Assembly (NCBI RefSeq): GCF_003018255.1
Contig: NZ_CP027440.1
DNA: 64,000 nucleotides
Reading direction: 5' to 3' (one strand)
DNA from: Escherichia coli
GTDB taxonomy: Bacteria; Pseudomonadota; Gammaproteobacteria; Enterobacterales; Enterobacteriaceae
Below, one piece after another: positions 3,726 to 60,802 of this stretch. Position 1 is the first letter of the stretch, and the number at the start of each line of letters is the position of its first letter. The position numbers and the translations under genes were made by a program. The notes beneath the pieces were generated by a model. It did no database searches. It had not been told where the DNA came from and saw nothing but the letters and a program-made list of their open reading frames with translations.

Positions 3726-3820
3726 GTTTGCTACCTAAATTGCCAACTAAATCGAAACAGGAAGTACAAAAGTCCCTGACCTGCCTGATGCATGCTGCAA
3801 ATTAACATGATCGGCGTAAC

Positions 3821-3961
3821 ATGACTAAAGTACGTAATTGCGTTCTTGATGCACTTTCCATCAACGTCAACAACATCATTAGCTTGGTCGTGGGTACTTT
3901 CCCTCAGGACCCGACAGTGTCAAAAACGGCTGTCATCCTAACCATTTTAACAGCAACATAA
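3821..3961 (+). CDS. yjjY: Small protein YjjY (46 aa), uncharacterized
   Basis: ORF MTKVRNCVLDALSINVNNIISLVVGTFPQDPTVSKTAVILTILTAT read directly from sequence; too short for the supplied ORF track; lies in the arcA upstream region. Confidence 0.6.
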   Translation: MTKVRNCVLDALSINVNNIISLVVGTFPQDPTVSKTAVILTILTAT

Positions 3962-24898: not shown

Positions 24899-27715
24899 AT
24901 GAGTGACTATAAATCAACCCTGAATTTGCCGGAAACAGGGTTCCCGATGCGTGGCGATCTCGCCAAGCGCGAACCGGGAATGCTGGCGCGTTGGACTGAT
25001 GATGATCTGTACGGCATCATTCGTGCAGCTAAAAAAGGCAAAAAAACCTTCATTCTGCATGATGGCCCTCCTTATGCGAATGGCAGTATTCATATTGGTC
25101 ACTCGGTTAACAAGATTCTGAAAGACATTATCATTAAGTCCAAAGGGCTTTCTGGATATGACTCGCCGTATGTGCCTGGCTGGGACTGTCATGGTCTGCC
25201 AATCGAGCTGAAAGTAGAGCAAGAATACGGTAAGCCGGGGGAGAAATTCACCGCCGCTGAGTTCCGCGCCAAGTGCCGCGAATACGCTGCGACCCAGGTT
25301 GACGGTCAGCGCAAAGACTTTATCCGTCTGGGCGTGCTGGGCGACTGGTCGCACCCGTACCTGACCATGGACTTCAAAACTGAAGCCAACATCATCCGCG
25401 CGCTGGGCAAAATCATCGGCAACGGTCACCTGCACAAAGGCGCGAAGCCGGTGCACTGGTGCGTTGACTGCCGTTCTGCACTGGCAGAAGCGGAAGTTGA
25501 GTATTACGACAAAACTTCTCCGTCCATCGACGTCGCTTTCCAGGCGGTCGATCAGGATGCGCTTAAAACGAAATTTGGCGTAAGCAATGTTAACGGCCCA
25601 ATTTCGCTGGTTATATGGACCACCACGCCGTGGACGCTGCCTGCTAACCGCGCAATCTCCATCGCACCTGATTTTGATTATGCGCTGGTGCAAATCGACG
25701 GTCAGGCCGTGATCCTCGCGAAAGATCTGGTTGAAAGCGTAATGCAGCGTATCGGCGTTAGCGATTACACCATTCTTGGCACGGTGAAAGGTGCCGAGCT
25801 GGAACTGTTGCGCTTTACCCATCCGTTTATGGACTTCGATGTTCCGGCAATTCTCGGCGACCACGTTACGCTGGATGCCGGTACCGGTGCCGTTCATACC
25901 GCGCCAGGCCACGGTCCGGACGACTATGTGATCGGTCAAAAATATGGTCTGGAAACCGCTAACCCGGTTGGCCCGGACGGCACTTATCTGCCGGGTACTT
26001 ACCCGACTCTGGATGGCGTTAACGTCTTCAAAGCGAACGATATTGTCATTGCGTTGTTGCAGGAAAAAGGCGCACTGTTGCACGTTGAGAAAATGCAACA
26101 CAGCTATCCGTGCTGCTGGCGTCATAAAACGCCGATCATCTTCCGCGCGACGCCGCAGTGGTTCGTCAGCATGGATCAGAAAGGTCTGCGTGCGCAGTCA
26201 CTGAAAGAGATCAAAGGCGTGCAGTGGATCCCTGACTGGGGCCAGGCGCGTATCGAGTCGATGGTTGCTAACCGTCCTGACTGGTGTATCTCTCGTCAGC
26301 GTACCTGGGGCGTGCCGATGTCACTGTTCGTGCACAAAGACACAGAAGAACTGCATCCGCGTACTCTCGAACTGATGGAAGAAGTGGCAAAACGCGTTGA
26401 AGTTGACGGCATTCAGGCGTGGTGGGATCTCGATGCGAAAGAGATCCTCGGCGACGAAGCTGACCAGTATGTGAAAGTACCGGATACGCTGGATGTATGG
26501 TTTGACTCCGGATCTACCCACTCTTCCGTTGTTGATGTGCGTCCGGAATTTGCCGGTCACGCAGCGGACATGTATCTGGAAGGTTCTGACCAACACCGTG
26601 GCTGGTTCATGTCTTCCCTGATGATCTCTACCGCGATGAAGGGCAAAGCGCCATATCGTCAGGTACTGACTCACGGCTTTACCGTGGATGGTCAGGGGCG
26701 CAAGATGTCTAAATCCATCGGTAACACCGTTTCGCCGCAGGATGTGATGAACAAACTGGGTGCGGATATTCTGCGTCTGTGGGTGGCATCAACCGACTAC
26801 ACTGGCGAAATGGCCGTTTCTGACGAGATCCTGAAACGTGCTGCCGACAGCTATCGTCGTATCCGTAACACCGCGCGCTTCCTGCTGGCAAACCTGAACG
26901 GTTTTGATCCGGCAAAAGATATGGTGAAACCGGAAGAGATGGTGGTACTGGATCGCTGGGCCGTAGGTTGTGCGAAAGCGGCACAGGAAGACATCCTCAA
27001 AGCGTACGAAGCATACGATTTCCACGAAGTGGTACAGCGTCTGATGCGCTTCTGCTCCGTTGAGATGGGGTCCTTCTACCTCGACATCATCAAAGACCGT
27101 CAGTATACCGCCAAAGCGGACAGCGTGGCGCGTCGTAGCTGCCAGACTGCGCTGTATCACATCGCAGAAGCGCTGGTTCGCTGGATGGCACCAATCCTCT
27201 CCTTCACCGCTGATGAAGTGTGGGGTTACCTGCCGGGCGAACGTGAAAAATACGTCTTCACCGGTGAGTGGTACGAAGGCCTGTTTGGTCTGGCAGACAG
27301 TGAAGCAATGAACGATGCGTTCTGGGACGAGCTGTTGAAAGTGCGTGGCGAAGTGAACAAAGTCATTGAGCAAGCGCGTGCCGATAAGAAAGTGGGCGGC
27401 TCGCTGGAAGCGGCAGTAACCTTGTATGCAGAACCGGAACTGGCGGCGAAACTGACCGCGCTGGGCGATGAATTACGATTTGTCCTGTTGACCTCCGGCG
27501 CTACCGTTGCAGACTATAACGACGCACCTGCTGACGCCCAGCAGAGCGAAGTCCTCAAAGGGCTGAAAGTCGCGTTGAGTAAAGCCGAAGGTGAGAAGTG
27601 CCCACGCTGCTGGCACTACACCCAGGATGTCGGCAAGGTGGCGGAACACGCAGAAATCTGCGGCCGCTGTGTCAGCAACGTCGCCGGTGACGGTGAAAAA
27701 CGTAAGTTTGCCTGA
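24899..27715 (+). CDS. ileS: Isoleucyl-tRNA synthetase
   Basis: 938-aa ORF with class I aaRS HIGH ([11 protein letters not shown]) and KMSKS motifs; C-terminal zinc-binding cysteines. Confidence 0.99.
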
Positions 27716-28209
27716 TGAGTCAATCGATCTGTTCAACAGGGCTACGCTGGCTGTGGCTGGTGGTAGTCGTGCTGATTATCGATCTGGGCAGCAAATACCT
27801 GATCCTCCAGAACTTTGCTCTGGGGGATACGGTCCCGCTGTTCCCGTCGCTTAATCTGCATTATGCGCGTAACTATGGCGCGGCGTTTAGTTTCCTTGCC
27901 GATAGTGGCGGCTGGCAGCGTTGGTTTTTTGCCGGTATTGCGATTGGTATTAGCGTGATCCTGGCAGTGATGATGTATCGCTCGAAGGCCACGCAGAAGC
28001 TAAACAATATCGCTTACGCGCTGATTATTGGCGGCGCGCTGGGCAACCTGTTCGACCGCCTGTGGCACGGCTTCGTTGTCGATATGATCGACTTCTATGT
28101 CGGCGACTGGCACTTCGCCACCTTCAACCTTGCCGATACTGCCATTTGTGTCGGTGCGGCACTGATTGTGCTGGAAGGTTTTTTACCTTCTAAAGCGAAA
28201 AAACAATAA
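27715..28209 (+). CDS. lspA: Lipoprotein signal peptidase (signal peptidase II)
   Basis: 164-aa membrane [33 protein letters not shown]...; ATG overlaps the ileS stop by 1 nt. Confidence 0.98.
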
Positions 28210-28214
28210 TAAAC

Positions 28215-28288
28215 CCTGCCGGATGCGATGCTGACGCATCTTATCCGGCCTACAGATTGCTGCGAAATCGTAGGCCGCATCCGGCAAA
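28215..28288. repeat. REP/BIME palindromic unit pair in the lspA-fkpB spacer
   Basis: GCCGGATGCGATGCTGACGCATCTTATCCGGCCTAC and inverted GTAGGCCGCATCCGGCA match the REP consensus. Confidence 0.85.
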
Positions 28289-28316
28289 AATCCTCAAAAT
28301 ATAAGAGCAAACCTGC

Positions 28317-28766
28317 ATGTCTGAATCTGTACAGAGCAATAGCGCCGTCCTGGTGCACTTCACGCTGAAACTCGATGATGGCACCACCGCTGAGTCTACC
28401 CGCAACAACGGTAAACCGGCGCTGTTCCGCCTGGGTGATGCTTCTCTTTCTGAAGGGCTGGAGCAACACCTGCTGGGGCTGAAAGTGGGCGATAAAACCA
28501 CCTTCTCGCTGGAGCCTGATGCGGCGTTTGGCGTGCCGTCACCGGACCTGATTCAGTACTTCTCCCGCCGTGAATTTATGGATGCAGGCGAGCCAGAAAT
28601 TGGCGCAATCATGCTTTTTACCGCAATGGATGGCAGTGAGATGCCTGGCGTGATCCGCGAAATTAACGGCGACTCCATTACCGTTGATTTCAACCATCCG
28701 CTGGCCGGGCAGACCGTTCATTTTGATATTGAAGTGCTGGAAATCGATCCGGCACTGGAGGCGTAA
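28317..28766 (+). CDS. fkpB: FKBP-type peptidyl-prolyl cis-trans isomerase FkpB (SlpA)
   Basis: 149-aa [43 protein letters not shown]... Confidence 0.97.
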
Positions 28767-28767
28767 C

Positions 28768-29718
28768 ATGCAGATCCTGTTGGCCAACCCGCGTGGTTTT
28801 TGTGCCGGGGTAGACCGCGCTATCAGCATTGTTGAAAACGCGCTGGCCATTTACGGCGCACCGATATATGTCCGTCACGAAGTGGTGCATAACCGCTACG
28901 TGGTCGATAGCTTGCGCGAGCGTGGGGCTATCTTTATTGAGCAGATTAGCGAAGTACCGGACGGCGCGATCCTGATTTTCTCCGCACACGGTGTTTCTCA
29001 GGCAGTACGTAACGAAGCGAAAAGCCGCGATTTGACGGTGTTTGATGCCACCTGTCCGCTGGTGACCAAAGTGCATATGGAAGTCGCCCGCGCCAGCCGT
29101 CGTGGTGAAGAATCTATTCTCATCGGTCACGCCGGGCACCCGGAAGTGGAAGGGACGATGGGCCAGTACAGCAACCCGGAAGGGGGAATGTATCTGGTCG
29201 AATCGCCAGACGATGTGTGGAAACTGACGGTCAAAAACGAAGAGAAGCTCTCCTTTATGACCCAAACCACGCTGTCGGTGGATGACACGTCTGATGTGAT
29301 CGACGCGCTGCGTAAACGCTTCCCGAAAATTGTCGGTCCGCGCAAAGATGACATCTGCTACGCCACGACTAACCGTCAGGAGGCGGTACGCGCCCTGGCA
29401 GAGCAGGCGGAAGTAGTACTGGTGGTTGGTTCGAAAAACTCCTCCAACTCCAACCGTCTGGCGGAACTGGCCCAGCGTATGGGCAAACGCGCATTTTTGA
29501 TTGACGATGCGAAAGATATCCAGGAAGAGTGGGTAAAAGGCGTGAACTGCGTTGGCGTGACTGCGGGCGCATCGGCTCCGGATATTCTGGTGCAGAATGT
29601 GGTGGCACGTTTGCAACAGCTGGGCGGTGGTGAAGCCATTCCGCTGGAAGGTCGTGAAGAAAACATTGTTTTCGAAGTGCCGAAAGAGCTGCGTGTCGAT
29701 ATTCGTGAAGTCGATTAA
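28768..29718 (+). CDS. ispH: 4-hydroxy-3-methylbut-2-enyl diphosphate reductase (LytB)
   Basis: 316-aa product [42 protein letters not shown]...; conserved start inside the longer track ORF. Confidence 0.98.
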
Positions 29719-30698: not shown

Positions 30699-30849
30699 CC
30701 TGTCACATGTTATCGGCATGCAGTCATTCATCGACTCATGCCTTTCACTGATATCCCTCCCTGTTTATCATTAATTTCTAATTATCAGCGTTTTTGGCTG
30801 GCGGCGTAGCGATGCGCTGGTTACTCTGAAAACGGTCTATGCAAATTAA

Positions 30850-31686
<837 letters not shown>

Positions 31687-37214: not shown

Positions 37215-37299
37215 TCGCCGGATGCGATGCTGGCGCATCTTATACGGCCTACGGTTCCTTTCCAGCCAGGTCGGATAAGGCGTTTACGCCGCATCCGGA
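37215..37299. repeat. REP/BIME palindromic units between caiF and caiE
   Basis: CGCCGGATGCGATGCTGGCGCATCTTATACGGCCTACG plus inverted AGGTCGGATAAGGCGTTTACGCCGCATCCGG. Confidence 0.85.
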
Positions 37300-41669: not shown

Positions 41670-41757
41670 ACTGCCGGATGCGGCGTAAACGCTTTATCCG
41701 GCCTACATTCGTGCTCCCGTAGGTCTGATAAGACGCGTCAGCGTCGCATCAGGCAGC
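41670..41757. repeat. REP/BIME palindromic units between caiB and caiA
   Basis: GCCGGATGCGGCGTAAACGCTTTATCCGGCCTAC and GTAGGTCTGATAAGACGCGTCAGCGTCGCATCAGGCA. Confidence 0.85.
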
Positions 41758-52849: not shown

Positions 52850-52905
52850 AGTGCCGGATGCGACGCCGGTCGCGTCTTATCCGGCCTTCCTGTATCAGGC
52901 TGTGT
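52850..52905. repeat. REP palindromic unit(s) between convergent folA and apaH
   Basis: GCCGGATGCGACGCCGGTCGCGTCTTATCCGGCC and a flanking partial unit. Confidence 0.8.
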
Positions 52906-60713: not shown

Positions 60714-60802
60714 GTGTAGGCCTGATAAGACGCGGCCCGCGTCGCATCAGGCAATCGGCGCAAAATTGCCGGATGCGGCGTGAACGCCTTCTCCGGCCTA
60801 CC
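60714..60802. repeat. REP/BIME palindromic unit pair between djlA and rluA
   Basis: GTAGGCCTGATAAGACGCGGCCCGCGTCGCATCAGGC and GCCGGATGCGGCGTGAACGCCTTCTCCGGCCTAC in inverted orientation. Confidence 0.85.

Follow-up and report, generated by a model that had tools for sequence, protein, structure and literature searches.

Within the window (the whole 64-kb stretch of Escherichia coli DNA that was analysed), the genes for signal peptidase II (lspA), whose product is the target of globomycin, and for an FKBP-type peptidyl-prolyl isomerase (fkpB) are separated by a spacer at positions 28210–28316, which, going by the ORF list, is 107 bp long. The RefSeq annotation of SK1144 gives the gene order as ribF-ileS-lspA-fkpB-ispH, and this arrangement has been described as one operon (PMC10783499). 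Lying between two coding sequences, and thus extragenic, are an intact REP (REP1), a short linker, and the remainder of a second, inverted REP (iREP2), the coordinates of which are collected in Table 1.

Table 1. Features of the lspA-fkpB spacer and its flanking genes, in window coordinates.
Feature	Position	Strand	Basis
lspA (signal peptidase II)	27715–28209	+	ORF list; RefSeq annotation of identical SK1144 sequence
lspA stop codon TAA; second in-frame TAA	28207–28209; 28210–28212	+	Sequence
REP1, intact 37-nt REP	28217–28253	-	Inverted repeat, pattern match
Composite RNA hairpin, predicted	28217–28286	+	Inverted repeats; minimum free energy -42.6 kcal/mol, z -5.9
16-nt linker AGATTGCTGCGAAATC between inverted REPs	28254–28269	.	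Sequence, minimum-energy structures
iREP2 stub GTAGGCCGCATCCGGCA, 17 nt	28270–28286	+	Alignments
Putative deletion junction, sole remaining GCCG copy	28274–28277	+	Alignments
CCTCAAAAT, ancestral state of second K-12 difference	28292–28300	+	Allele catalogue with outgroups
fkpB ribosome-binding region	28303–28319	+	Shine-Dalgarno-like AAGAG 28303–28307, ATG 28317–28319; annotated start
fkpB (FKBP-type peptidyl-prolyl isomerase)	28317–28766	+	ORF list; RefSeq annotation

REPs of E. coli have been described as imperfect palindromes of 20–50 nt with an AA-GC mismatch and a GTAG directly on their 5′ side, the y and z2 units being 35 and 37 nt in length (PMC8266576). REP1 reads GTAGGCCGGATAAGATGCGTCAGCATCGCATCCGGCA on the - strand (TGCCGG...GGCCTAC on the + strand), where its GTAG corresponds to the CTAC at 28250–28253, and it has a palindrome of the size described. 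Its hairpin stem extends over 28218–28249, with the arms GCCGGATGCGATGC and GCATCTTATCCGGC placing a GC opposite a TT, i.e., the AA-GC mismatch that is typical of E. coli REPs. When folded alone, REP1 gives -21.5 kcal/mol (z -5.7). The linker is conserved in all of the E. coli alleles that we catalogued, and its GAUU/AAUC pairing is predicted to make up the tip of the composite hairpin. The iREP2 stub is what remains of a 35-nt, y-length REP, whose K-12 form is GTAGGCCGGATAAGGCGTTTACGCCGCATCCGGCA. Here, the GTAG (28270–28273) and the 3′ arm are retained, while 18 nt of the 5′ arm and loop are lacking; the stub does not form a palindrome of the kind described and shows no independent fold (-5.6 kcal/mol, z -0.8). 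While the lengths of the K-12 iREP2 (35 nt) and REP1 (37 nt) match those of y and z2 units, which alternate, with characteristic linkers, in BIME-2 (a DNA gyrase target), this is an agreement in length only, with both units having the GCCGGAT core.

A complete BIME is found in the K-12, E. albertii, and Escherichia sp. MOD1-EC7003 alleles, but not in that of the window, where the inverted REP is without 18 of its 35 nt; what lies here is a BIME remnant, i.e., one REP plus a stub. As for copy number, a query with the K-12 allele and its full iREP2 matched a median of at least 30 places per genome. Further REPs occur in the window at 41673–41706, 52853–52885, and 60720–60752, of which the first is closely similar to the y-type REP found in shortened form at lspA-fkpB, and half REP motifs are seen near 37217–37252, 48167, 52735, 60768–60801, and 60866. 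No second 17-nt stub of the iREP2 kind was found in the 64-kb window. Moreover, an Rfam scan of 27000–29500 returned naRNA4 (RF02564), a REP-derived RNA, at 28177–28250, scoring 42 bits (+ strand) and 32 bits (- strand). Both scores fall below the gathering threshold of this family, 59.5 bits, and a specific sRNA was rejected in favor of a generic REP resemblance.

Differences between the window and K-12 spacers

The annotated lspA-fkpB spacer of MG1655 is 124 bp, and in K-12 records with standard-origin numbering the matching 328-bp segment is found at 25602–25929, which therefore puts the K-12 spacer at 25702–25825. The original prediction had named exactly this MG1655 interval for alignment and held the window spacer to be about 17 bp shorter; alignment and annotation both bear this out, the reference spacer differing from that of the window (124 versus 107 bp). 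It had further called for a small indel in an operon-internal REP and, in fact, alignment with K-12 revealed a gap of 18 bp (GCCGGATAAGGCGTTTAC) in the second (inverted) REP of the window, within the gene order given above. In K-12, this 18-bp block is flanked by a 4-bp direct repeat, GCCG, such that the K-12 junction reads GTAG(GCCG)GATAAGGCGTTTAC(GCCG)CATCC and that of the window GTAG(GCCG)CATCC. Read to its end, the second REP of K-12 is GTAG(GCCG)GATAAGGCGTTTAC(GCCG)CATCCGGCA, and its counterpart in the window is GTAG(GCCG)CATCCGGCA.

A second difference lies just downstream and combines a C/T substitution with a 1-bp change in an A-run, the window having CCTCAAAAT against CCTT-AAAT in K-12, with strain S1 being intermediate (CCTC-AAAT). 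This C/T and A-run variant (28292–28300) is linked to the REP alleles. Since the CTCAAAAT of the window is common to the outgroups, the 1-bp A-run loss of K-12 can be taken as derived in the K-12 lineage. Separate losses of 18 bp in the window lineage and 1 bp in the K-12 lineage thus account for the net difference (-18 + 1 = -17). Here, the prediction of a single indel, made by coordinate arithmetic, was right in its net length but not in its number of events, and, by the same token, its mention of a REP pair is true of K-12 but not of the window, with its one intact REP and 17-nt stub.

Alleles, outgroups, and polarity of the difference

Sequence searches of about 5,425 complete E. coli genomes, which included stub-specific 45-mers, sorted the spacer into four architectures, depending on whether REP1 and iREP2 are full or cut down to a stub. 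The K-12 type (full/full, 124 bp), as in MG1655 and S1, accounts for about 1,719 genomes (32%), this count being the remainder after the other three classes; the window type (full/stub, 107 bp), as in UTI89, UM146, and BEN2908, for about 1,477 (27%); the stub/full type (104 bp), as in E24377A, for 21 (0.4%); and the stub/stub type (86–88 bp), as in O157:H7, for 2,208 (41%). All four combinations of full and stub units therefore occur in E. coli, with that of K-12 being only one of them. At a finer level, the 311-bp segment of the window was matched by 1,478 records at 95% identity or more, and by 961 at 99% or more. The window allele is one of three common alleles and, as such, an ordinary standing strain polymorphism. 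The REP1 stub itself takes more than one form, these being the ‘AA’ form TGCCGGATAAGGCCTAC in 1,544 genomes (the 21 of the E24377A type included), the ‘GC’ form TGCCGGATGCGGCCTAC in 487, and other forms in about 198 (e.g., H9). For the O157-type ‘AA’ stub, a simple deletion was rejected as its origin, because AA replaces GC there.

Over a larger region of 22 kb (18000–40000), only two of the 5,425 complete genomes, JNE23-011 and JNE112863, are 100% identical to the window, with the next best at 98.6%; with so few close matches, the window lineage appears sparsely sampled, though its spacer allele is common. Within this region, the rihC-dapB spacer (30699–30864) is another variable spot, where the form in the window is short and K-12-like, while SK1144 has an extra DUF805 gene (locus L021, 7584–8009) and a non-coli Escherichia has about 7.4 kb inserted (locus L006, 3500–10963).

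For outgroups, a single genome of each species was scanned with a search pattern, which yielded six loci and missed E. fergusonii, E. marmotae, and E. ruysiae, probably on account of codon differences in the pattern. In both E. albertii and MOD1-EC7003, with flanking identities to the window of 92% and 94%, the two REPs are full, and each carries lineage-specific substitutions. An inverted REP pair is also present in the lspA-fkpB spacer of Pseudocitrobacter, so REP occupancy of this spacer extends beyond Escherichia. The Pseudocitrobacter pair differs in its sequence (P. vendiensis, locus L009, about 3735–3900; locus L007, about 1490–1600), and a third GC-rich palindrome, GCCCGCTGAGCGTAGCGCTTCCGGGC, precedes fkpB in P. 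vendiensis.

Given these full-REP outgroups, together with a stub that keeps both ends of the REP (GTAG and CATCCGGCA) at the direct repeat, a deletion in the lineage of the window allele is the best reading, and these sequences make it most likely that the window carries the deleted form. However, the outgroups disagree, in that the window-type stub is found with its own flanking SNPs in L006 (labelled E. coli, though about 92–93% identical to the window) and E. whittamii has both REPs as stubs, which means that the same deletion endpoints are seen in separate species. These shared endpoints may stem from recurrence at a hotspot, or else from an old polymorphism (the allele being older than E. 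coli) or introgression. In principle, gene conversion from another REP copy could also rebuild a full REP and so reverse the polarity.

The account that we consider probable is one of a decayed BIME, in which the second REP was shortened by 18 bp in the window lineage and K-12 separately lost one A, with the outcome being a common and nearly neutral polymorphism. By this account, the ancestral spacer would have had two full REPs, one of 37 nt and, in inverted orientation, one of 35 nt, with a 16-nt linker between them; the window lineage would then have lost 18 bp of the second REP between the GCCG repeats, leaving the 17-nt stub, most likely through replication slippage at a hairpin-forming sequence. 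K-12 would have kept both REPs and independently lost one A from the nearby A-run. Another candidate cause, excision by TnpA-REP, appears unlikely, as the reported cuts at CT sites flank the entire REP structure on its 5′ or 3′ side (PMC8266576), whereas the GTAG and stem base are kept here and the interior is lost.

Stub alleles in two divergent Escherichia species, the majority share of the iREP2 stub in E. coli (about 68%), and the greater richness in REPs of clade A genomes compared with others (PMC3333891) would each suit the opposite polarity, in which the second REP was short to begin with and the K-12 lineage gained the full REP by insertion, whether via gene conversion or via proliferation driven by TnpA-REP, the REP-associated transposase. 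Yet the full iREP2 of E. albertii and MOD1-EC7003 bears lineage-specific substitutions, and the stub consists of exactly the two REP ends meeting at a 4-bp direct repeat, the pattern that marks a deletion. Moreover, for an exact insertion of the missing 18 internal bases, conversion is, to our knowledge, the sole known mechanism. An insertion in the K-12 lineage is therefore unlikely.

Predicted transcript structure and its consequences

In the predicted fold of the window transcript, the outer stem of the composite hairpin is formed by UGCCGGAUGCG (28217–28227) pairing with CGCAUCCGGCA (28276–28286), and it encloses a branch made by the top of REP1 as well as a GGCCUAC/GUAGGCC inner stem. The inverted-repeat search likewise found the 3′ arm of the stub to be perfectly complementary to the 5′ arm of REP1. 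Against the value for the window in Table 1, the predicted stability of the composite is -61.2 kcal/mol (z -7.9) for the K-12 allele and -33.5 kcal/mol (z -5.3) for the short O157 allele, so that the K-12 and window alleles are about 19 kcal/mol apart in total. In the folds of all three alleles, pairing begins 7 nt past the lspA stop (at 28217 in the window), and neither the outer stem nor its spacing from the fkpB ribosome-binding site varies. Alignment also showed the fkpB ribosome-binding region to be invariant. The predicted probability that the fkpB Shine-Dalgarno sequence is unpaired is 0.63 in the window versus 0.27 in K-12, though the lower accessibility in K-12 arises because the C/T and A-run change creates a weak 4-bp hairpin and is not due to the 18-nt deletion.

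The hairpin does not resemble an intrinsic terminator, since no U-tract follows it and the + strand instead continues as AAAAAUCC. A promoter and terminator scan found no terminator-like site in 28210–28316, and promoter-like hits were at chance level (2 versus 1.0 expected). The lack of a U-tract and of terminator-like sites here is consistent with an operon-internal position. In a 1.1-kb scan that took in the 3′ end of lspA, there were four terminator-like sites versus 1.4 expected; terminator-like hairpins with a T-run (GGTTTTTT) lie within the lspA 3′ end at 28151–28183 on the + strand, and these are probably a matter of chance or coding constraint.

According to earlier work, REPs stabilise the mRNA upstream of them and differ from strain to strain, as do BIMEs (PMC3333891; PMC8266576), and where a REP lies within 15 nt of a stop codon, the preceding gene is reported to be translated less (Liang, Rudd and Deutscher 2015, quoted in PMC12306157). 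At the locus studied here, the stem begins 7 nt beyond the lspA stop, which ends at 28209, and so lies within that 15-nt distance. With the REP1 hairpin and outer stem unchanged, the element would still act as a non-terminating stem-loop that shields ileS-lspA mRNA from 3′ exonucleases, and, being 7 nt past the stop, it might dampen translation termination of lspA. These predicted folds retain what should count for mRNA protection and lspA termination, and the deletion, as the REP1 hairpin and outer stem are kept, is expected to be nearly neutral, though a modest effect on lspA, fkpB, and ispH expression is possible. Altered differential mRNA decay, which the original prediction had raised, is a general property of REPs, and the effect of the deletion here would probably be small.

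It could instead be argued that the length alleles are functionally distinct and under selection, tuning lspA, fkpB, and ispH via hairpin stability, be it through exonuclease blocking, ribosome stalling at the lspA stop, or Rho/BIME attenuation. Three alleles do stand at intermediate frequency (27%, 32%, and 41%), in keeping with such selection, but phylogroup structure predicts such frequencies equally well, with UTI89 and UM146 being of the window type and O157 of the short type. While the predicted stabilities do differ (-61, -43, and -34 kcal/mol), and the stem, at 7 nt from the stop, falls inside the range for which reduced translation is reported in the quoted portion of Liang et al. (2015), the outer stem, the stop distance, and the distance to the fkpB ribosome-binding site are identical across alleles. 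The shift in Shine-Dalgarno accessibility (0.63 versus 0.27) that accompanies the linked C/T and A-run change also speaks for selection. Altogether, we regard selection on the length alleles as quite improbable.

A related thought comes from the cutting of both REPs to 17-nt stubs that keep the GTAG, in near mirror symmetry and with identical endpoints in Escherichia about 7% diverged. There appear to have been at least three separate cutting events, i.e., the 18-bp loss from iREP2 and those behind the ‘GC’ and ‘AA’ stubs of REP1. These might point to a specific and possibly enzyme-assisted excision of REP hairpin tops (e.g., processing by SbcCD or TnpA-REP, then template switching), or to alleles selected to tune the output of LspA, FkpB, and IspH, but we find this very doubtful. 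As for a sequencing or assembly artefact from a collapsed palindromic repeat, to which polymerase and assembly errors at palindromes could lead, its likelihood is practically nil, refuted as it is by the same allele in about 1,477 independent complete genomes (961 at 99% identity or more) and in a second Escherichia species, whose flanks carry SNPs of their own.

Comparison with known elements

Our literature search on lspA, fkpB, and REP found nothing specific to the REP of the lspA-fkpB spacer. For this spacer, K-12 holds no privileged position as a reference. The locus has some practical value, in that the four discrete length classes of the spacer (about 124, 107, 104, and 87 bp) offer a possible and cheap lineage marker. 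In addition, as lspA and ispH are essential genes, the natural allele series suits a test of what share an operon-internal REP hairpin has in differential expression.

Among known systems, the REP/BIME elements with their y, z1, and z2 palindromic units, reportedly described by Stern in 1984, by Bachellier in 1994–1999, and by Ton-Hoang in 2012, are like the lspA-fkpB element in having GTAG, an imperfect palindrome of 35–37 nt, an AA-GC mismatch, and two inverted units with a short linker, as well as in their intergenic position just past a stop codon and in strain variation at a fixed locus. The departure from this pattern is that the second unit in the window is only a 17-nt stub. REPINs, said to be REP doublets that Bertels and Rainey recognised, mostly in Pseudomonas, as the unit mobilised by RAYT transposases, are comparable in that two inverted REPs fold into one long hairpin whose arms decay and are corrected together, though the lspA-fkpB locus shows no evident mobility and is fixed across Escherichia. 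With the REPs of Liang, Rudd and Deutscher (2015), in so far as they are quoted, the lspA-fkpB REP shares a stem at 7–8 nt past the upstream stop, the limit being 15 nt.

Template switching at quasipalindromes turns imperfect palindromes into perfect ones (Ripley; Lovett laboratory; PMC7202029). Here, the REP1 ‘GC’ stub of 487 E. coli genomes and E. whittamii is the exact reverse complement of the iREP2 stub, so the composite palindrome is perfect, which is the outcome that template switching predicts; such mirror-image stubs make for a natural illustration of quasipalindrome correction, if a minor curiosity. In contrast, the deletion in the window made the palindrome less perfect, for which direct-repeat slippage fits better, and a simple switch does not account for the commoner ‘AA’ stub.

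The decayed BIME of the window, taken alone, has very little significance and is a further instance of the small intergenic length differences between E. coli strains for which REP/BIME elements are the main source. In fact, the difference is of an already known kind, i.e., a REP/BIME length polymorphism, and about 1,477 complete genomes in public databases carry its allele. Polymorphism of this class has been described as accounting for a major part of the intergenic variation in E. coli (Bachellier, Clement, Hofnung and Gilson 1997, Genetics 145:551, as cited in PMC3333891), with the emphasis, in the relevant portion of PMC3333891, being on copy number, linker variation, and IS insertion. 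Unlike the cases stressed in that portion, the window has an internal hairpin-top deletion that leaves a stub, but it is like them in being a strain-to-strain difference in intergenic length that lies wholly within a REP/BIME.
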